NCBI RefSeq assembly: GCF_004010195.1
Contig: NC_057754.1
Location: 9,301,215-9,365,214 of the forward strand
Length of the DNA: 64,000 nt
Source of the DNA: Chiloscyllium plagiosum
Lineage: Eukaryota
Reading direction: 5' to 3'
Shown here: in pieces, positions 20 to 58,478 of the stretch
Position numbering within the stretch: the first letter of the stretch is position 1
Layout: every line of letters begins with the position of its first letter
Position numbers and translations under genes: made by a program
Notes under the pieces: model-generated
What the model was told of the DNA's origin: nothing
Databases searched by the model: none
Seen by the model: the letters and a program-made list of their open reading frames with translations, nothing else

Positions 20-2050
20 TCTCTAAATTCATCACTTTCAAATGTACATTCGTTTTTGAAATCTCCGACGGAATCCACCTCCAGCACAGCCCCAGACTGC
101 ATTCTAAATCCTAAAAATTCTGAGTCAAGAACTTTCTCCTCCTTTCACCCCTAGCTCTCTTGCTGACAGTCCTGAAATTTTGTGACCATTAGTTACAGAC
201 ATAACAACGAGTGGAAACAGAATATCCTTCTTTATCCTGTCAAAATTGTTGATGATTTTGAAAAATCTCAAGGTCACTTATTAATCTTTTGTGTTCCATG
301 GAGAATATGCCCAATTTCTCTAATATTTCCTTGTATCTAAAATCCCTATTCCTGATATAATTCTAGTATATATTCTTTGAACTCTCTCCACATTCTTCAT
401 TTAATAAAGTGTCCAGAACTGGAAGTACCTGTGGTCTGATCGATGATGTGTAGAGGTGTAGCATCACTTCCTTGCTTTTATACTCTAGGCTTCTAATTAT
501 AAACCCAAGGATCATAAAAGCCGACTGAACAACCGTTTCCCCTCACCTGGCCGCTTTCAGAGAATTGTCCGTGTCCCTCTGCTCCTGCACTCTCCTTAAA
601 GTTGTATCAATGAGCCGGTATTGTATCTGTTTCTTCTACCAAAATGCATGGCCTCTTATTTATCTGCCAGATAGATCTCTGCCCATTTGGCCAATTTGTT
701 AATGTCCCTCTGAAGTTGCTCAGCATCAATCTCTCAATTCAGTATTCTCCCTGGCTTAGTAGCATCAACAAATTTAGAGATTTTGCCCTCAACACACATC
801 TCCGAATCATTTGTATAAATCAGAAAAAGCAAGGGTCCCAAACCATTCCGTGGGGAGCACTACTTTCAATTCATCTCCAACTGAGAAATGCCCATCCATA
901 ATTACCCTCTGTTTTCTAACTTTTAGCCAACTTCTAAACCACACTGCCAAGGATCCATCAACCCCAAACATTTCTAATTGCTAGCCAACTCAACTTGTGG
1001 CACCATATCGAATGCTTTCTGAAAGTCCAAACATACTACAACCATAGCACTGCCCTTATCCACCAAAGAAAATTGTAAGACATGACCTGCACTTGATAAA
1101 GCCATGTTGGCTGTCTAATATTAAATTATTTTTCTTTAAATGCATATTTACCTTATTCTGTATTGCGGCCTCCATCAGTTTTCTCACTATTGATGTCAAG
1201 CTGATAGGTCTGTAATTTACTGGGTTATTCTTTGCTCCTTTCTTAAACAGCAGTGTCACATTTGCAATCCTTTAGTCCCTGGGCCTTATCCTTGTTCAGA
1301 GGGACCTAGAAAATTTCTGTCAGTGGTTCTGTGATTTGCTCTGTTACTTCTCTCAGCGATTTAGGATGCATCCCATTTGGGCCTGGCATCTTCTCTATTT
1401 GGAGTGCTGCCAATCTTTTTAGTACCTCTTCCTAATCTATGACTATAATGATCAGTTTCCCAACATTCATATTTTGTCTTGGCCATTGTCAACATTTTTG
1501 AATTTGCTAAAGACAAAAGGAAAATATTCATTTAGTACCTCTGCAATACCCTTTGATTCAGTAAGTAGTTTACCCTGCTTATTCCTTATGGGCCCCATTC
1601 TATCCTTCACTAATTTTTTTACTATTAATATATTTGAAGAACATTTTACTATTTGGTTTAGCACAGTCTGCCATCTTTTCCTCATGCTTCCCCTTAGCTT
1701 CCGTTATTCCAGCCTTACCATCTCTCTTGCTTTTATCAGTCTACTGTGTATTATATGCCTCCTTTCTCTTCCTTATTTTCTCATTAATATCCTTATTAAT
1801 GGTACTCTAGCTTAGAATACCCTGTACTTATTTCTCATGGATATGTACCTAGCTTGCACCCTCTTTTGAAATTCTCCCTATTTTTCGTCCATTGTTTTAT
1901 CACCCAAAATGCATTTACAATCAATGTGCTCCAGTTCAACTTTAGGATCCCTCAAATCTACCCTGTTCCAGTCTGGAATCTTAATCATTCACTGATTTTC
2001 GTTGTTTTCCAACTTAATGTTGAACCTTTACTATGATTGCTATTCCCCAA
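20..2050 (-). mobile_element. Decayed CR1-clade LINE ORF2 fragment (RT region to 3' end)
   Basis: ORF fragments LFKKGAKNNPVNYRPISLTSIVRKLME and SQHGFIKCRSCLT are typical of CR1 ORF2; many stops and frameshifts. Confidence 0.85.
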
Positions 2051-2059
2051 ATACAAATA

Positions 2060-3182
2060 TAGAATGTTACAGCACAGTACAGGCCCTTCGGCCCTCGATG
2101 TTGCACCAATCTGTGAAAATAATCTGATGCCCATCTAACCTTCGCCGTTCCATTATTGTCTATATGTATGTCCAATGCCCATATAAATGCCCTCAACATC
2201 AGCAATTCTACTACTGTTGCAGGCAGGCCGTTCCACCCCTCTACTACTGAGTAAAGAAACTACTTCTAATACCTGTCCTGAATCTATCACCCCTCAATTT
2301 AAAGCTTATGTCCCTCATGTTAACCTTCACCACCCAAGGAAAAAGGCTCTCACTATCCACCCTATCTAACCCTCTGATTATCTTATATGTGTCGAGTAAG
2401 TCACCTCTCAACCTTCTTCTCTCCAATGAAAATAGCCTCAGTTCCTTCAGCCTTTCCTCGTAAGACCTTCCTTCCATTACAGGCAAAATCTCCTCTGAAT
2501 CCTTTCCATAGCTTCCACATCCTTCCTGTAATGCGGTGACCAGAACTGCATGCAATACCTCAGATGTGGCCTTACCAGTGTCTTAAACAGCTGAAGCATA
2601 ACCTGGTGGCTCCTAAACTCAATCCCCCTACCAATAAACACCAACACACCATATGCCTTCTTAACAACTCGATCGATCTGAGTGGCAACTTTCAGAGATT
2701 TATGTATCAGAGATTTATGTTCATCTGCACTGCCGAGAACTTTACCATTAGCCCAGTACTCTGCATTCCTTTTATTTCTTCCGAAGTGAACTACCTTACA
2801 CCTTTCCGCATTAAACTCCATTTGCCACTTATCAGCCCAGCTCTGTATTTAATCTATGTCCCTCTGTAACCCATAACAACCTTCAGCACTATCCACAACT
2901 TAGTGTCATCTGCAAAGTTACTAATCCATCCTTCTATGCCCATGTCCAGATCATTTATAAAAATGACAAACCGGTGGCCCCAAAACCGATCCTTGTGGCA
3001 CACCACTGGTAACAGCTCCAGGATGAACATTTCCCATCAACCACCACCCTCTGTCTTCTTTCAGTGAGCCAATTTCTGATCCAAACCGCTAAATCACCTT
3101 CAATCCCAAAACTCCTTATTTTGTGCAATAGCCTACCGTGTGGAATCGTATCAAATGCCTCACTGAAGTCCATATACATCAC
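2060..3182 (-). mobile_element. CR1/HER1-type LINE, 5'-truncated, probably nested in the older CR1
   Basis: MDFSEAFDTIPHGRLL, MEFNAERCKVVHFGR and LFSLERRRLRGDL motifs; 3' tail GGGCCGAAGGGCCTGT on the minus strand near 2075-2095. Confidence 0.9.
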
Positions 3183-3391
3183 ACAGAACAACACATAGAA
3201 TCACTACAGTGTGGAAACAGGTCACTTGGCCCAACCAGTCCACACTACCCCTCTGAAGCACACCCCACCCAGACTCTACTCCTCCCTCCCCCTCCAAACC
3301 CTGCATTTCCCATGGTTAATCCATCTAACCTATACGTACCTGGACACTATGGACAATTTAGCATGTACCCAATCCACCTCACCTGGACTAT

Positions 3392-3890
3392 AAGGCATAG
3401 AAGCAGAAATTAGGCCATTCAGCCCATTGAGTCTGCTCTGCCATTCAATCATGGCTGATAAGTTTCTCAACCCCATTCTCTCACTTTCTTCCCATAACCC
3501 TTGATCCTCTTGATACTTAATAACCTATCTATCTTAGTCTTAAATATACTGATTGACCTGGCCTCCACAGTCTTCTGTGACAATGAATTTCATAGATTCC
3601 CCACTCACTGCCTGAAGTTTCTCCTTATCTCTGTTCTAAAAGGTCTTCCTTTTACTCTAAGGCTGTGCCCTCTGGTCCTAGTCTCTCCTATGAATGGAAA
3701 CATCTTCTCAACATCTACTCTGTCCAGGCCATTCAGTATTCTGTCTCAATTAGATACCCTTTCATCCTTCTAAATTCCATCAATTTATAAACCCAGAGTC
3801 CTCAAATGTACCTCATATGTTAAGCTTTCCATTCCTCGGACCATTCTTGTGAACCTCTTCTGAACACGCTCCAGGGCCAGTGCATCCTTC
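3392..3890 (-). mobile_element. CR1 LINE 3' fragment
   Basis: 3' end (AGGCCATTCAGCCCATTGAG on +) resembles the CR1 copy at 19610-20230. Confidence 0.75.
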
Positions 3891-12389: not shown

Positions 12390-13290
12390 TGTTCACTTTT
12401 GTTGATAATGATTTGACATTTATCCAGACACTGAACTCCAGCATAGTTACTGGGATTATCAATAGAAGTCAACTCAAAAGGTAAGAATGAACAGCACTAA
12501 TAACAGCAGAGTACAACCCCTGCAATCACTGAAGTATTGTGTTAGGATTGAAGATGACTGAGTAAATCTCTTCCCACACATGGAGTATATGAACAGCGTG
12601 TTGTTATGTTACTGTGTCAGCAGGTCCATTTTACTTTTACAACTCTGCTTATAGAACATTAACTATTTTTTTAAAAAAGAAGTGTGGTCAAGTGTTTGGA
12701 GGGTGGGATGACTGAGTGTACAGAACAGGTGGAAGTCCTCCCCTCAATGTGAACATGTTGCTGGATACTGATATCACACAATCCCCAAGTTCAGTCCTTT
12801 AGTGGGAGTAGCTGAACAGTCTCCTGTCACTGTGAATGCATTAATTACAAATCAGCTCCATGGAGAATTTTTAAACCCATCCTGCAATCCTGATGTTTAA
12901 AAGATTTTTTCAGTGTTAACTAACCGATGAGCCAACAGGTTAGTCGAATGAATGAATCCTCCTCCCACACATGAAGCAGGCTAAACACCCGCTGATCTGT
13001 ATGTCCTTGAACGTTATGATGTTATGTACTGCTTGCAAAACAAGACTTTTCACTGTACTTAGGTACGTGACAATAAATCAAATCAATTCAAATCAAAACA
13101 AAAGTCAAATCTCTCCCCAGTGTGAACTTGGTGCTGATGTAGGTTGGACAATCGCTGAACTTCTTCCCACGGTAGGAGCAGACAAATGGGTACATACCTG
13201 CAACATGAGACAATACAGGTTTCCAAACCCCTTCCATCCAGAGTGAACTGGCTGGTATGTCCGAAGACTGGATGGAGAAAGATTTGAGTT
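12390..13290 (-). pseudogene. Heavily decayed C2H2 zinc-finger array with family-type 3' UTR
   Basis: Minus strand has TGTGGGAAGAGATTTACTCAGTCATC (CGKRFTQS); ORF scraps RLSNLHQHQVHTGER and SSLRTYQPVHSG; 12400-12530 resembles the 3' UTRs of the intact genes. Interrupted by a Rex-like tail at ~12990-13100. Confidence 0.75.
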
Positions 13291-13563: not shown

Positions 13564-14640
13564 TTATTCATGAACCCGCTGGTGTCTCAGCAGGGCAGTT
13601 GAATGAGTAAATGCCTTTCCACACTGGGAGCAGGTGAATGGCCTCTCCCCTGTGTGAATTCGCTGGTGTACAGTGAGGTTAGATGATCGCCGGAACCCAG
13701 CTCCACAGTGAGAACATCTGAATGGCTTCTCATCAGTGTGAACACGTTGATGGCGTGTCAAGTCCCTAGAACATTGAAAGCACTTCCCACAGTCTGTGCA
13801 TTTAAAAGGTCTGTTGCCAGTGTGGACTCGCTGGTGACTCAGCAAGTTGGATGCATCAGTGAATCCTTTCCCACACTCTGGGCAGATGTACGGTCGTTCC
13901 CCAGTGTGAACTCGCTGGTGTGTCAGCAAGTTAGATAACCGAGTGAACCTCTTCTCGCACTTGGAGCAGGTGAACGGCCTCTCACCGGTGTGAATGCGCT
14001 GGTGTGTCAGCAGGTAGGATGACCGCGTGAATGCCTTCCCACAATCTGAGCAAGTGAATGGTTTCTCCCCAGTGTGAACTCGCTGGTGTATCAGCAAGGT
14101 GGATGAATGAGTGAATCCCTTCCCACACTCCAAGCAGTTGAACGGTTTCTCCTTTGTGTGAACTCGCTGGTGTATCAGTAGGTCAGATGACTGAGTGAAT
14201 CCCCTCCCACATTCAGAGCAGGTGAATGGTCGTTCCCCAGTGTGAACTCGCTGGTGTCTCAACAGGGTAGATGACTGAGTGAATCCCTTCCCACACATGG
14301 AGCATGTGAATGGTCTCTCACCAGTATGAATTCGCTGGTGTAGAGTTAGTTCTGATGGCTGAGTGTATCCCTTTCCACACTCCGAGCAGGTGAACGGTCT
14401 CTCCCCAGTGTGAAGCTGTTGATGTCTCAGCAGGGTGGACGACTGAGTGAATCCCTTCCCACACTCTGAGCAGGTAAATGGTTTCTCTCCAGTGCGAGTT
14501 TGTCTGTGAATAATGAGTTCAGATGACTCCCTGAACTGAGTCCCATAGTTAGAGGACCTGAACGGTCTCTCGTCATTGTGAACAGATTGACGAGACATAA
14601 GTTCCCCAGACTTTTGTAGGAACTCCCAAAATCTGGACAT
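13564..14640 (-). CDS. Tandem C2H2 zinc-finger protein, 11 intact fingers, eroded N-terminus (ZNF-1)
   Basis: 358-aa ORF with 11 C-x2-C-x12-H-x3-H fingers and TGE(K/R)PF linkers. The first ~50 aa are broken fingers and the start codon is uncertain. Confidence 0.85.
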
Positions 14641-15020
14641 TTAAAAGATCTGTCTTCACTGAACTCACTGGTGATCCAGCAGAGAGGATGACTGAGTGAA
14701 CTGCTTCTCACGCTTGGAGCTGGCAAATAATTTCTCTCCAGAGTGACTGTACCTGTGCGATTCCAGCTCAGATAAGTAATTGAATTCCTTCTCACAGTTC
14801 CCAGTTTTCCATCACTTCTCAAATAAATTTGTGTCTTGACATTCCAGATGACTAGCTGAACACAAAACACATGTTTAGATTCCCCCACTGTGATTGGTGT
14901 TTTTTCCTTCCATGTTCAAAATCCAATGATATTCAGATTGTGATCATTTGAGAAAGTGTCAGATTCCACGGTGATGTTTGGTTTGGGTTTCCTGACTGAA
15001 CATCCTCCACTTCCAATACC
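14641..15020 (-). other. ZNF-1 exon-2 leader with decayed N-terminal fingers; splice acceptor at 15021-15022
   Basis: Minus strand TTTGAATCACTTTCACAG|GGTATTGGAAGTGGAGGATG, then EK*WKTGNCEKEFNYLSELESHRYSHSGEK...HQ*. Confidence 0.7.
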
Positions 15021-22360: not shown

Positions 22361-22557
22361 AATAGAAAAAAATGTCTGAGTTTTTTTTAACCCAGTGGAA
22401 GTGGCCAGGTCACTGATTTGTGTAATTCAATAGTTAACAATTATTTGACACTTATGGCAAATTGTTGTTGCATAACTAGATAAGACACAGGAACAGAAGG
22501 AGGCCACTCAGCCCATTTGAGTATGCTCCACCAAAGAGATTATGGTCGCTCTCATAA

Positions 22558-22651
22558 CCTGAAGAAGGGGCTCATGCCCGAAAAGTCGACTCTCCTGCTC
22601 CCTGGATGCTGCCTGACCTGCTGCGCTTTTCCAGCAACACATTTTCAGCTC
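22558..22651 (+). mobile_element. Short Penelope pLTR-derived element, family B (hammerhead-like core)
   Basis: CTGAAGAAGGGGCTCATGCCCGAAAAGTC followed by the family body GGATGCTGCCTGACCTGCTG. Confidence 0.7.
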
Positions 22652-22931
22652 GTAACCATCAACTCCACTTTCCTTTCACCCTCGAATCGCTTACCAGATT
22701 TAAAAATTGTCTCTCTCAGCCTTGAATAAACTTAGTGACCGAGCCTCAATACCCCCTTGTAATTGAAAATTCCACGGCAGCAATGAAAAGGTTTCTGGAT
22801 CTTCCAGAATTTGGGTAAGCGTCTGAGGGTCAGACCTTCCTCGGATTTGCAACTCGAAGCGCCCTCCGCCCCGACCTGTCCTCACTCCGAGATGGCGGTC
22901 AGTTGCCCGGGTAACCGGCGTGGGCGGAATA

Positions 22932-23261
22932 CCCACCCCCTCGTTCACTCCGATTGGTTGGAGGGACCATTCTTTCCGGATCAGTGCTCCAGCCCCGCCT
23001 CCTCATTCACGCCGATTAGTTGGAGGACTATCCGCTCCATCTTAGTCCTCCAGCCCCGCCTCCTCGTTCACTCCCGATTGGTTGGAGGACCATGCCCGCC
23101 AGCTCGGGCCTCCAGCCCCGCCTCCTCATTCACTCCTATTGGTTGAGGTTGGAGGACCATCCCCTCCAGCTGATTCCTCCTGCCCTACATCCCCCTCATT
23201 CACTCTGATTGGTTGGAGGAAGCCCCGCCCCCTCATTCATACCGCTTGTATGGAGGACTAG
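22932..23261 (+). repeat. Array of six ~45-bp repeats with 16-bp variable spacers (period ~61-67 bp)
   Basis: Consensus CTCCAGCCCCGCCTCCTCATTCACTCCGATTGGTTGGAGGACCAT at 22932 (partial), 22987, 23048, 23110, 23177 and 23221 (degenerate). Confidence 0.9.
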
Positions 23262-25139: not shown

Positions 25140-25320
25140 TCTATGTTGTGTGAACTTCTCGATGGAGTCATAGTCATAGTTTTTAAATAATGGAGTGAAT
25201 TGATCCTTACAACAGAGGCGGTGAATAGATCATCCACTGTGACTTGCTGATGCAAAAGCAGGTTGAATGACTGAGTGAATATCTTCCATCATATAGGGCA
25301 GATGAACTGACTCTTCTTGG
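25140..25320 (-). pseudogene. Small relic of about two C2H2 fingers
   Basis: Minus strand TTCATCTGCCCTATATGATGGAAGATATTCACTCAGTCATTCAACCTGCTTTTGCATCAGCAAGTCACAGTGG reads approximately FICPI*WKIFTQSFNLLLHQQV. Confidence 0.65.
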
Positions 25321-29100: not shown

Positions 29101-29199
29101 ATAAACATCTCAGCTATCCGTCATGTCCAGTTGGTCTACCCAGAATGCCCCACGTTGCAGAGAGCGATTGTCAATTATCGGGAGGGTGCAGATTAATGG

Positions 29200-29630
29200 C
29201 GTTTTGTTTACCCAGACCGCCCTGCGCTGCAGAAAGCCCCCTATCAGTGACTATGGTAGCCCAGTGCGCAAAGTAGAAGCAGTCTGTGCTCTGAGCATGC
29301 TCAGTGTCAGTCATGGAGACAGCATGAGGAGGAGCGGACGCTCGGGTGTCACGACGAGATTGAGGAAGGGTAAGGGTGGAAACCGCGGCACTGAGGCCTG
29401 GTAACATTATCAATTCCTGGAGGAGGCCCCCTGAGGCTCCGAATAGGAATCGCTAGGCGTGTTTGCTCAGCGGGCGGGCTCTCTGACCGCCATCTTGTGA
29501 GTGGGTGTCAGGGATCCGGGGCACGATCTCCCGAAGTGGTCCCGGGTTACCTAGGCAACTGTTAGCCCGCCATCTTGGTGAAGGAATGACCCTGGCAACC
29601 GGCGGCCATTTTGTTGAGGATGTCAGGTCT
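29200..29630 (+). promoter_or_regulatory. CpG-island promoter, exon 1 and intron 1 of ZNF-2
   Basis: CTGAGCATGCTCAG palindrome; donors G|GTAAGG (29370) or G|GTAACA (29401); YY1-type sites 29487, 29567, 29603; X-box GTTACCTAGGCAAC 29546-29559; acceptor TATTTACAG| at 29701. Confidence 0.75.
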
Positions 29631-30097
29631 TTGGGGAAATAATGAATGGGAATCGTTAGATATGTCTTTTCTGATTTTTTTTTTCAATCCTGTATTTACA
29701 GGCTGGAAAATGTAATCGAACACCACATCAAGATGTCACCGTCACCCCATTCAGCAGGACCTGAAAACGATTGGATTTTGAATATGAAAGGAGAAATGTC
29801 TGATGCTTTGCATGTGGGGAAATATTTCGTACCTGAGGATGATTTGGCAAAACACTGAAACTATCACACACCCCAGAATGAGAATGTTCTGGTGCAAAGG
29901 CTGTGAAAAGAGCTTTAACCAGTTAACGTGGTCTGACTGAATGTTCCAGGGCACTGACTATGGAGAGAGCTTTAATGAATCACACAGCCTGAAAAAAAAT
30001 CACAACATTCACAGTGTGGAGAAAATATCAGTGTTGTGTCCTTAAAAAAAGCTTAAACTGATCGTTCAATCTGGGGAGACGCAAGAACACTCAGAGC

Positions 30098-31399
30098 ATG
30101 GAGAAACGATGGAAATGTGAGGACTGCGGTAAAGGATTTGATTATCCATCTCTGCTGGAAATTCATCGACGCAGTCACACAGGTGAGAGACCATTCATCT
30201 GTTCTGTGTGTGGGAAGGGATTTACTAAATCATCCAGCCTCATGTACCACCAGCGAATTCACACTCAGGAGAAGCCATTCAGCTGCACTTACTGTGGAAA
30301 AAAATTCAGGCAGTCATGCAACCTCACTGCACACCAGCGAATTCATACTGAGGAAAGGCCATTCAGCTGCACTCACTGTGGAAAAAAGTTCAGGCAGTCT
30401 TCAAATCTCACTGCACACCAACTAATTCACACGGGCGAGAAGTCATTCATTTGCTCTGTGTGTGGGAAGGGATTCGCTCAGTCATCAGGACTTTGGTCCC
30501 ACCAGCGAATTCACACTGGGAATAAATTATTCAGTGACACATCCTGTACAAGGAAGTTGAAGTCTTCAACTGGCCTCACGTCACAAGATGATCCTAGAGA
30601 GAAGCCATTTATCTGCTCTGTGTGTGGAAAGGGATTTAGTCAGTCAGGTAGCCTCCTGCTACATCAGCGAATTCACACTGAGGAGAGGCCATTCAGCTGC
30701 ACTCAGTGTGGGAAGAGGTTTAAGCATTCAAACACTCTCACTGCACACCAGCGAATTCATACTGGGGAGAAGCCATTCACTTGCTCCAAATGTGGAAAGG
30801 GATTTGCTCAGTCATCCAACCTGGTAGTGCACCAACGAATTCACGCTGAAGAAAAGCCATTAAACTGCACTCACTGTGGAAAGAGTTTCAGGTCTTCATC
30901 CAATCTCATTGCACATCAGCGCACTCATACAGGGGAGAGAAGGTTCATCTGTTCTGTGTGTGGGAAGGGATTCACTCAGTCAGCCAGCCTCATGTTACAC
31001 CAGCGAATTCACAGTGGGGAAATGCCGTTCAGCTGCACTCAGTGTGGAAAGCAGTTCAGACATTCATCCACCCTCAGTGCACACCAACGAGTTCATACTG
31101 GGGAGAAGCCATTCATTTGCTCCATATGTGGGAAAGGATTCACACATTCATCTGGCCTTTGGTCTCACAAGCGAGTTCACACTGGGGAGAGGCAATTCAG
31201 CTGCATTGCGTGTGGAAAAAGATTCAGGTCTGCATCTGATTTGAATGTACACAAGCGAGTTCACACTGGGGAGAGGCCATTCACCTGTTCTACTTGTGGG
31301 AAGGGATTTACTCTGTCATCCAATCTGCTGACACATCAGAGAATTCATAAGCGTCAACAGAGTTTGAATTCAGCTGTTAATCACGTTCAAGATTTATAG
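30098..31399 (+). CDS. Tandem C2H2 zinc-finger protein, 14 fingers plus 1 degenerate (ZNF-2)
   Basis: 433-aa ORF starting [30 protein letters not shown] in good context (AGCATGG); no effector domain visible. Confidence 0.92.
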   Translation: MEKRWKCEDCGKGFDYPSLLEIHRRSHTGERPFICSVCGKGFTKSSSLMYHQRIHTQEKPFSCTYCGKKFRQSCNLTAHQRIHTEERPFSCTHCGKKFRQSSNLTAHQLIHTGEKSFICSVCGKGFAQSSGLWSHQRIHTGNKLFSDTSCTRKLKSSTGLTSQDDPREKPFICSVCGKGFSQSGSLLLHQRIHTEERPFSCTQCGKRFKHSNTLTAHQRIHTGEKPFTCSKCGKGFAQSSNLVVHQRIHAEEKPLNCTHCGKSFRSSSNLIAHQRTHTGERRFICSVCGKGFTQSASLMLHQRIHSGEMPFSCTQCGKQFRHSSTLSAHQRVHTGEKPFICSICGKGFTHSSGLWSHKRVHTGERQFSCIACGKRFRSASDLNVHKRVHTGERPFTCSTCGKGFTLSSNLLTHQRIHKRQQSLNSAVNHVQDL

Positions 31400-47579: not shown

Positions 47580-48260
47580 TCGATTCTCCGCCTCCTGTTC
47601 CTACTCGATAACTAAAAAAACAATTAAATAACGGCAAAAAAAACAGAACCGCCAATGGCGAAGGTAGTACCCAGCAGCCTCCGCGGTGGTGAATACGCTG
47701 TATTCACACAATGGAAAAGCGGTGCGCAGTCGCAGCACCTAAGCATGCGCAGAATGGGCATTAGCGGTAGTTCTTTGTTTCTCGGATCCGCAAACGGTAA
47801 GAATACGGCGGGGTGGAAGGAGCGATGAATCCAGTGGGCAGTCGCGCATGATTCGTAAATGTGTTTTGTAAGTCTCCATCTAACCCCGATAAGGAATTTC
47901 TTTCCCCCTTTCCTGGTGTGCATCGAAATGGGCCGCAGCTACCAGCGTAGGTCCCCGGTTGCCGGCCGCCATCTTTATTAGGGGCATTGAGGGCTGGGCG
48001 CACCCTCACCGCCATCTTTGTAGGGGGAGGGGCGATGTTCTCAATGACTGGGGAGCATCAGCTCAGAACAGTAGCTCAGACTGGCTTAGTTGCCTGTCAA
48101 GCTGACGAAGTGTCTGATTGGTGAGGCAGCGCTGCGGTACACAAGGAAGGGAAAGGACGCAAATCCTGCACCCCAGTTCGCTCTAGCCATGGTAGGTCCT
48201 GCTCCATGTATCCAAAGATCCGCAACTCACATGAACAGCGACGGCGTGTAAACCTCTTCC
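47580..48260 (+). promoter_or_regulatory. CpG-island promoter and non-coding exon 1 of ZNF-3
   Basis: CCAAT at 47652; NRF1-like GCATGCGCA at ~47743; donor CG|GTAAGA at 47797; YY1-type CCGCCATCTT at 47966 and 48009. Confidence 0.78.
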
Positions 48261-49497: not shown

Positions 49498-50535
49498 ATG
49501 GAAGGAAAAAGCATCATTTGCACTAGGGAGAAACTGTACATGTGTTCTGTATGTGGACGAGACTTCAGCCGATCATCTGGTTTATCCAGACACAAGTGCA
49601 GTCAGACTGGGGAGAACCCGTGGAAATGTGAGGACTGTGGGAAGGGATTCAATTACCCATCTGACCTGGAGACACATCAGCGCAGTCACACTGGGGAGAA
49701 ACCGTTCACCTGTCCTCAGTGTGGGAAGGCCTTCACACAGTCATCCACCCTCCTCAAACATCAGCGTGATCACAATGGCTACAGGCCATTCACCTGTCCT
49801 GAGTGTGGGAAGGGATTCACTCAGTTTTCCAACTTCTTGGGTCATCAGAGAACTCACACTGGGGAGAGGCCATTCACCTGCGCAGAGTGTGGGAAGGGAT
49901 TCACTCAGTCATCCCACCTGATGGCACATCAGCGAGTTCACACTGGGAACAGACCTTTCACCTGCTCCGAATGTGGGAAGGGAAGCTCTCAGTTATCAGA
50001 TCTGCTGAAACACCAGCGGGTTCACACTGGTGAGAGACCATTCACTTGCTCTGAGTGTGGAAAGGGATTCACTCAGTCATCGCACTTGCTGAAACACCAG
50101 CGAGTTCACAGTGATGAAAGACCATTTGAATGCCTGCATTGTGGGAAGCGTTTTAAAAGTTCTGTGGAGCTGGTGTCTCATCAACGGGTTCACAGTGACG
50201 AGAGACCTTTTAAATGCCGAGACTGTGGGAAGTGCTTTAAAACTTCTGGGGAACTGGTAACCCATCAACGCGTTCACACTGACGAGAGACCGTTCAGATG
50301 CTCTCACTGTGGGACTGGGTTCAGGAAATCATCTCAACTCACTGTACACCAGCGAATTCACACTGGGGAGAGGCCGCTCAGCTGCTCCAACTGTGGGAAG
50401 AGATTTAATCATTTGTCCAATCTACTAAAACACAAGCGTATTCACACTGGGGAAAAGCCATTCACTTGTTCTGAATGTGGGAAAAGATTCACTCAGTCTT
50501 CCCATCTATTGAGGCATAAGCGAGTTCACAAGTAA
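49498..50535 (+). CDS. Tandem C2H2 zinc-finger protein, 11 fingers plus an atypical N-terminal finger (ZNF-3)
   Basis: The ORF track starts at TTG 49492; the first ATG (AACATGG) is at 49498. Acceptor TTCACAG| at 49387; AATAAA at 50642-50647. Confidence 0.92.
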
Positions 50536-57302: not shown

Positions 57303-58478
57303 TCACTTGTGACCTTGCTGGTGTCTCAGCAGGTGGGATGACTGAGTAAATGCCTTTCCACACTTGCAGGTGAATGGCCTCTCTCCAGTGTGAATTCGCT
57401 GGTGTGTCTGCAGGTGGGATAACTGAATAAATCCCTTCTCACACTCAGAGCAAGTGAATGGTCTCTCCCCAGTATGAACCCGCTGGTGCGTCAACAGGTA
57501 AGATAACCGAGTGAATACCTTCCCACAGTCAGAGCAGGTGAACGGTCTTGCCCCAGTGTGAACGCGCTTGTGCACACTGAGGTAGGAAGAAGACCTGAAC
57601 CTCTTTCCACAGGAAGTGCAGCTGAACGGCCTCTCCTCAGTGTGAATTTGTTGGTGTTTTAGCACATCAGAGGTTTGTGAAAATCCTTTCCCACATACAG
57701 GGCAAGTGAATGGTCTCTCCCCAGTGTGAACATGCTGGTGTGTCAGTAGTTGGGATGATCGAGTGAATCCCTTTCCACACTTGGAGCAAGTGAATGGTCT
57801 CTCTCGAGTGTGAACCCACTGATGTTTTTGCAGACTGATTGACCGAGTAAATCTCTTGCCACATGAGGAGCAGGTAAATTGTCTCTTTCCAGTATGAACT
57901 CGCTGGTGTCTCAGCAATTGGGAAAACTGAGTGAATCTCTTGTCACATTCTGAGCAGGTGAATGGTTTCTCCTTTGTGTGGACTCTCTGATGTGTCAGTA
58001 GGATGGAGGACTGCGTGAATCCTTTACCACACTCAGAGCAGGTGAACGGTCTCTCACCAGTATGAGTGCGTTGATGGATCAGCAAATTGTGGGACTGAGT
58101 GAACGCTTTCCCACACTCAGAGCAGGTAAATGATTTCTCTCCAGTGTGAACATGCTGGTGTCTCAGCAAATTTGATGAACGAGCAAACTGTTTCCCACAA
58201 ACAGAACAGGTGAATGGCCTCTCCCCAGTGTGAACACGTTGGTGTGCAGTGAGGTTGGCTGACTGCCTGAAACGCTTTCCACAGGAACTGCAGCTGAATG
58301 GCTTCTCCTCAGTGTGAATAAGCATGTGTTTCTGAAGACTAGATAATACTGTGAAACCTTTCCCACATGTAGAACAGCTAAATAGCCTCTCTCCAGTGTG
58401 ACTGCGCCGATGAATTTCCAGCTGGGATGGGTAATTGAATCCCTTCCCACAGTCGCCACATTTCCACGGTTTTTCCAT
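57303..58478 (-). CDS. Tandem C2H2 zinc-finger protein, 14 fingers, the last with C-x-C spacing (ZNF-4)
   Basis: 391-aa ORF starting [27 protein letters not shown]; acceptor CTCTTTCCCCACTCCATAG-like at 58587-58588. Confidence 0.92.
   Translation of the reverse strand: MEKPWKCGDCGKGFNYPSQLEIHRRSHTGERLFSCSTCGKGFTVLSSLQKHMLIHTEEKPFSCSSCGKRFRQSANLTAHQRVHTGERPFTCSVCGKQFARSSNLLRHQHVHTGEKSFTCSECGKAFTQSHNLLIHQRTHTGERPFTCSECGKGFTQSSILLTHQRVHTKEKPFTCSECDKRFTQFSQLLRHQRVHTGKRQFTCSSCGKRFTRSISLQKHQWVHTRERPFTCSKCGKGFTRSSQLLTHQHVHTGERPFTCPVCGKGFSQTSDVLKHQQIHTEERPFSCTSCGKRFRSSSYLSVHKRVHTGARPFTCSDCGKVFTRLSYLLTHQRVHTGERPFTCSECEKGFIQLSHLQTHQRIHTGERPFTCKCGKAFTQSSHLLRHQQGHK

Follow-up and report, generated by a model that had tools for sequence, protein, structure and literature searches.

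The 64,000-nucleotide stretch of DNA analysed here (the window) carries four tandem C2H2 zinc-finger genes, ZNF-1, ZNF-2, ZNF-3, and ZNF-4, with 11, 14, 11, and 13 intact fingers, respectively, and a CpG-rich stretch upstream of each. The locus raises the question of why one finger at the front of the array has been kept alike between genes, and whether it is, as the earlier note proposed, a protein-interaction finger that stands in for KRAB. In ZNF-2 (ORF 30098..31399, + strand; 433 amino acids with 14 intact fingers, one broken internal unit, and no effector domain) this signature finger occupies 30098..30181 and begins at the first Met of the ORF, with Trp at the first aromatic site and a helix that carries Tyr-1, Pro+1, Ser+2, Glu+5, and Arg+9. 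The four peptides on which the proposal was built are all present. Besides the ZNF-2 copy at 30098 (+), they lie in ZNF-3 from 49612 (+), within a signature finger that spans 49606..49689 with its linker (ORF 49498..50535, +; MEGK-type start, a degenerate pre-finger, and 11 intact fingers), in ZNF-4 from 58478 (−), where the finger (58398..58478) begins at a linker-derived Met (ORF 57303..58478, −; 13 intact fingers), and as a remnant in ZNF-1 (14743..14820, −). The ZNF-1 copy is decayed as had been described, with a stop in front, a Trp codon at 14811 (−), and loss of the first Cys and of the Pro, so that the helix entry reads YLS; it clusters with the intact three, and the surviving ORF (13564..14640, −) contains 11 intact fingers with the signature finger absent. 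Presence in all four genes, as originally claimed, is thus correct for intact copies in ZNF-2, ZNF-3, and ZNF-4 but not in ZNF-1, where the copy is dead.

The Trp, the YPS helix entry, and the acidic LE had been considered exclusive to this finger, which is true of the Trp and the Glu but not of the Pro. Judged by eye over the four arrays, Trp two residues before the first Cys together with helix Glu+5 occurs in three of the 49 intact fingers and neither mark is found in the other 46, but Pro+1 is also seen internally, with finger 2 of ZNF-1 reading QPS. When the hairpin is written as a degenerate DNA pattern, it matches the window at exactly the places of these three fingers and nowhere in 100 shuffles. 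The Trp replaces the usual Phe or Tyr of the first strand, at a core position. All three intact copies have the classical spacing C-x2-C-x12-H-x3-H with its aromatic/Phe/Leu core and score above the PF00096 cut-off (30.9–34.1 bits, with ZNF-2 at 30.9). Among fingers with both Pro+1 and Glu+5 (n = 43), Trp is found in 33, Cys in 5, and Tyr in 5, and because Trp is present in only 33 of the 43, the finger is better recognised by its helix pair. A batoid sub-type (P0106, P0078, and P0042) keeps Pro+1 and Glu+5 with Tyr or Cys in place of the Trp; in P0106 it is the second aromatic site that carries a Trp.

Searches with the finger returned 17 and 40 proteins, and a profile search at least 150 among the matches listed. 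The elasmobranch set used below was gathered by similarity to the finger itself and comprises 34 proteins, which represent 8 species of shark and 5 of batoid. All named proteins with the finger are from a shark, ray, or skate. When proteins were picked by Pro+1 and Glu+5 alone, two came from an electric ray and a skate and the third from a lungfish, where the motif lies in an internal finger. The matches listed include no holocephalan, which says nothing about absence from holocephalans. Within the elasmobranch set, the Pro+1/Glu+5 pair is found in 43 of 110 fingers at rank 1–2 compared with 1 of 306 at deeper ranks, and the sole deeper case (rank 3, P0032) belongs to a second module of pre-finger plus finger located behind a divergent Trp finger. 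The pair occurs once in 44 arrays, not at all in 13, and never twice. In 275 other proteins, some of them without a named source, it is seen in 2 of 4,340 fingers and in none of the 469 array-first fingers, and the Trp in 4. Eleven of 57 arrays have no intact copy, which by eye are partly broken copies and partly annotation fragments, and several database arrays carry a broken copy ahead of intact fingers. Some shark proteins annotated as ZNF850-, ZNF91-, or ZNF271-like (P0018, P0022, P0024, P0026, and P0053) contain between two and four arrays, every one of which opens with a signature finger; since these long proteins split into finger-headed units, they are most simply explained as, and probably are, fused gene models.

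The earlier note had suggested that conservation be compared finger by finger across paralogues, and in this comparison the signature finger does exceed its neighbors, within a set biased by its retrieval. To limit circularity the finger was defined by its Trp alone, and helices were scored in the 29 arrays where three or more fingers follow it; the bias remains under the Trp-only definition, and conservation is inflated because the homologues had been collected for their resemblance to this finger. Mean pairwise identity of the helix is 0.59 for the signature finger compared with 0.38, 0.37, and 0.42 for the next finger, the one after that, and the last finger, and at positions +1, +5, and +9 it is 0.89 compared with 0.40, 0.47, and 0.55. 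The Tyr-1 site reaches 0.63, compared with 0.17 in the other fingers. In contrast, identity at the base-contact position +3 is 0.16, no better than the 0.14–0.19 seen elsewhere, and the higher value for the base-contact set −1/2/3/6 as a whole (0.48 compared with 0.20–0.32) is owing to Tyr-1 and Ser+2. In a tree of the unselected fingers of the window, the four copies fall into one group (4/4, 98/91), while the last fingers and those that follow the signature finger do not (78 columns, rough support). A homologue tree (23 columns, one array per protein, with P0007, P0032, and P0049 left out) places 31 of 31 signature copies in one group (99/90) and six of six pre-fingers in another, whereas the following and last fingers scatter, with 18 and 19 changes.

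Such likeness could also arise if the genes had expanded recently or exchanged their 5′ ends by gene conversion, with no selection on the finger. The signature finger of ZNF-2, ZNF-3, and ZNF-4 has a dS of 0.69, below the 0.83–1.72 of other finger ranks and just 0.30 in one pair, as recent exchange would predict, but synonymous sites differ at 45% and nonsynonymous sites at 9%, indels abound in the flanking DNA, and the finger is common to the 8 shark and 5 batoid species. With a dN of 0.094, its dN/dS is 0.14, compared with 0.18–0.37 (dN 0.17–0.31) for other ranks, and for the helix 0.23 compared with 0.77 in other fingers, all from three genes and hence three non-independent pairs. These low ratios therefore indicate purifying selection and count against recent conversion, an explanation that is already largely refuted and to which we attach very little probability. 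The whole-finger ratio is only slightly below that of the other ranks. A family-defining and constrained finger is nevertheless real.

The finger had been described as occurring once per gene, at the front, while internal fingers duplicate freely. The single copy and the front position are correct, but the finger was not the first unit originally, as a degenerating finger precedes it; and duplications of internal fingers do exist (f2 and f10 of ZNF-2 have 88% DNA identity) but are old, with a dS of 1.24 within genes and 1.29 between them. In ZNF-3 the degenerate pre-finger (49522..49605, +; last His lost, PF00096 26.2 bits) directly precedes the signature finger in frame, and in ZNF-1, ZNF-2, and ZNF-4 the DNA in front of the finger aligns to this region but holds broken, decayed equivalents. 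Across 47 homologous copies, the 28 residues that precede the finger form an intact finger in 11 and a remnant in 16; in another 10 they are unrelated, and in the remaining 10 there are none. The Met of M-E-K occupies the Gly site of the T-G-E-K-P linker; Met is present at this site in 17 of 48 signature fingers compared with none of 368 other fingers and is the annotated start in seven, which suggests that the linker Met is used as a translation start.

The 5′ end of ZNF-2 illustrates this erosion. Contig 1 of run X1, which we can only guess to be RNA, splices 29369 to 29702 across a GT..AG intron of 332 nucleotides (29370..29701, +) that lies within the CpG island and contains three YY1-like motifs. 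The upstream exon (at least 29304..29369, +) has no frame into the ZNF ORF according to this contig and a scan for ATGs. The leader that follows (29702..30097, +) is decayed coding DNA with frameshifted finger remnants and an old MEGK-type start at 29784, 326 nucleotides before the Trp codon. Stretches of 36–38 nucleotides match the start of ZNF-1 or ZNF-3 at 82–83%, and the traces of finger units are weak (E 0.06–0.14). As spliced, the leader (29304–30097) is at least 462 nucleotides long and built of decayed coding DNA. The spliced form, from the one contig, has 15 ATGs before the Met at 30098, 13 of them in 29702..30097, and no frame that starts at any of these leads into the ZNF ORF; on this evidence (one contig, RNA guessed) there is therefore no upstream coding exon. 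The 15 upstream ATGs may greatly reduce translation of the main ORF. Raw reads matched in runs X16 and X17, neither on record as RNA, number 2 and 0. The ZNF-2 finger thus became N-terminal through erosion of the units that preceded it.

This history invites an explanation by position only. A founder finger at the array edge would escape unequal crossing-over, the start codon would lock it in place, and its residues would stabilise the terminal finger, with no partner involved. The pre-fingers likewise form a single clade, the linker Met marks many starts, tandem-repeat calls begin after the finger in ZNF-2 and ZNF-4, ZNF-1 manages without it, and the first repeat of the PRDM9 array is likewise aberrant (PMC3388066). 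Set against this, the 3′ edge has not been preserved, as the last fingers scatter and are less conserved; it is the truly 5′-most pre-finger that degenerates while the signature finger stays intact, often at rank 2; and Pro+1 and Glu+5 persist in sharks and batoids around an intervening +3 that is free. We regard the positional explanation as rather unlikely, but even a mere relic of position would be a useful annotation marker, for example for the fused ZNF850-like models.

A gene that seems to work without the finger is ZNF-1, which has lost it together with the next three units, leaving four consecutive ruined units at its 5′ end. All 77 canonical residues are kept in its 11 fingers, and when neutral decay was simulated at 5%, all 11 remained intact in 1 of 2,000 runs. 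As judged by comparison with neutral decay, the intact fingers argue that a gene without the signature finger stayed under selection, and ZNF-1 is likely a living gene rebuilt by 5′ erosion. Candidate new starts are seen at 14640 and 14598, both in weak context. The signature finger would be advantageous but not obligatory.

The fold gives no indication of an unusual module. The structure prediction proposed in the earlier note returns an ordinary finger in an ordinary array: AlphaFold2 predicts a plain ββα finger (pLDDT about 91) with no extra strand or added element, Foldseek returns ordinary DNA-bound finger arrays, and sequence and fold searches of the PDB find ordinary fingers only. A homodimer prediction for ZNF-3 residues 10–95 with zinc, run without an alignment, scored 0.01 and 0.00 against a mark of 0.32 and was counted neither way. 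In the other fingers of the family, position +1 is Ser in 249 of 355 and position +5 is Leu in 216 of 355, where the signature finger has Pro and Glu. An initial helical-wheel reading in which these residues face away from DNA was replaced: according to PMC11187957, bases are read from helix positions −1, 3, and 6, whereas +1 and +5 contact, and so face, the phosphate backbone. The same paper describes Pro+1 in working engineered fingers and an engineered nuclease that was improved by a Pro-to-Ser change at +1. Pro+1 is also present in the DNA-binding Zfp568 found in the PDB search. At position +3 of the signature finger, the residue may be E, K, Q, L, R, A, H, D, or V.

Could the finger nevertheless be a constant anchor on nucleic acid, through which all members read one short DNA (or RNA) feature via Tyr-1, Ser+2, and Ile/Thr+6, with Glu+5 tuning backbone affinity? 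This is possible because Tyr-1 and Ser+2 are conserved, the net charge is still positive (+1.8 compared with +2.1 to +2.6), Pro+1 occurs in DNA-binding fingers, and the seven-residue linker to the next finger is canonical (T 100%, G 95%, E 100%); Arg+8/+9 is kept as well, and the ordinary fold matches DNA-bound arrays. Yet +3 switches among acidic, basic, and hydrophobic residues, and the two phosphate-contact sites carry Pro and Glu, and we consider such an anchor doubtful. Pro and Glu at the phosphate-contact sites, together with a free +3, instead favor a role that does not read DNA and probably involves protein contact. Contact with DNA would accordingly be weak, and the reading that we prefer, which draws on sequence comparison, is that the finger may read little or no DNA sequence and be conserved for some other contact, probably with a protein shared by the family; we put its chances at about even.

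Under this preferred reading, the four genes would belong to a large family of tandem C2H2 genes that lack KRAB and are found in elasmobranchs. The ancestral gene would have had a MEGK-type start and at least one leading finger, followed by the signature finger and a variable DNA-reading array. The signature finger would fold normally, one per array, and be held by purifying selection on a fixed surface made up of Tyr-1, Pro+1, Glu+5, and Arg+9 on the helix and the Trp and an Asp on the hairpin. This surface would be offered to something common to all family members, most likely a protein partner, while the downstream fingers would vary and so bind different sites. Leading fingers would erode, and in many genes the linker Met would let translation begin right at the signature finger.

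A substitute for KRAB, as first proposed, is a narrower claim. KRAB profiles (118 seeds) find no match in the six frames of the window and none at 20 bits in 33 proteins of the elasmobranch set, PF01352 is absent among the best 25 families listed for the four ORFs, and SCAN profiles (6 seeds) likewise find none in the window or in the 33 proteins. As the same profiles find 172 and 35 of 276 other proteins, respectively, the gap is real. The ZNF-1 loss, the broken copies, the ordinary linker, and the conserved base-contact sites Tyr-1 and Ser+2 all speak against an obligatory KRAB-like role, and substitution for KRAB is improbable in our estimate. We are equally hesitant about the finger as an effector module or co-repressor dock of an elasmobranch family that silences transposons independently of KRAB and FiNZ, in a lineage without KRAB-ZNFs. 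Were this true, the family may number hundreds of genes per genome, and copies that lost the finger, such as ZNF-1, would be passive binders or competitors. TRIM33 has been proposed as a partner of KRAB-like and FiNZ domains in ray-finned fish (PMC11603059 and PMC10380595), and an enrichment for loss of KRAB families is reported in cartilaginous fishes (PMC8455134).

Tandem ZNF families that are specific to one lineage and share a constant N-terminus are a known kind, to which these genes belong. They resemble the KRAB-ZNF genes of tetrapods in that they lie in clusters, turn over fast, encode a tandem C2H2 array in a single exon, and join a constant N-terminus to DNA-contact residues that vary. 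Unlike KRAB-ZNF genes, which recruit TRIM28-type partners, they show no KRAB in the six frames of the window or in the 33 proteins, and their constant part is a finger inside the array exon. The FiNZ-ZNF genes of cyprinids are also lineage-specific and KRAB-less, with a short (28 amino acids) conserved N-terminal mark of unproven mechanism, but the FiNZ sequence is acidic, is not a finger, and has an upstream exon to itself (PMC10547256). The mark here is a zinc finger, and the upstream exon of ZNF-2 does not join the ORF (one contig). The mode of action of KRAB-less arrays is open even for FiNZ in that paper, which also gives 703–3,586 ZNF ORFs per genome for seven elasmobranchs. That an N-terminal C2H2 finger can serve for interaction has a precedent in the single dimerising finger of a fly family: the CGx-Phi fingers of Diptera similarly place one special N-terminal C2H2 ahead of a DNA-binding cluster with no classical effector domain, but theirs is isolated and has an extra β-strand (PMC12774644), whereas the shark finger is canonically linked with no extra strand predicted. 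The first repeat of PRDM9, likewise, stands at the front, is unlike the other fingers of its array, and lies outside homogenisation, but it is truncated (PMC3388066), whereas the shark finger keeps all zinc ligands and has a surface of its own that is conserved between paralogues. The plant BIRD-IDD finger gave a weak match (13.8–23.8 bits, cut-off 27) and was rejected as convergence. A finger as the constant part in elasmobranchs is apparently undescribed: no description of such a finger was found in the literature searched, where subscription papers were largely missing and some supplementary ZNF sets of PMC10547256 were not covered. With this 28-residue mark the family could be counted and dated, and the finger is small and mutable enough to act as bait in a partner search.

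A metagenome pattern scan found two loci, both unrelated and zinc-ribbon-like, Rfam gave no matches, and only generic C2H2 clusters came from the ESM Atlas. ZNF-4 residues 58–391, searched to obtain an unbiased shark sample, had one elasmobranch protein among the 120 matches listed, which served only as background, and a representative search ranked by finger number had few among 150 listed.

Several other features of the window were noted. The broken finger of ZNF-2 (30520–30610, +) leaves the frame open and coincides with a cluster of differences in a contig of run X2. Decayed finger-unit DNA lies 3′ of the ZNF-1 stop (12538–13275, −; best E 2.7e-08), as either a lost 3′ extension of ZNF-1 or a fifth, dead gene, and an isolated decayed unit is found far from all arrays (25242–25317, −; E 3.2e-11). 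GCCAT(C/T)TT motifs, which we take to be YY1-like, occur in the CpG islands of three of the four genes (29488–29612, 47967–48018, and 18154), and a presumably ZNF143-like motif is located at 29139. A CpG-rich stretch at 22501–23250 has no ZNF ORF and contains a 62-bp tandem repeat of 4.6 copies (22932–23220) that has 16–18 nucleotides in common with the ZNF-4 upstream island.
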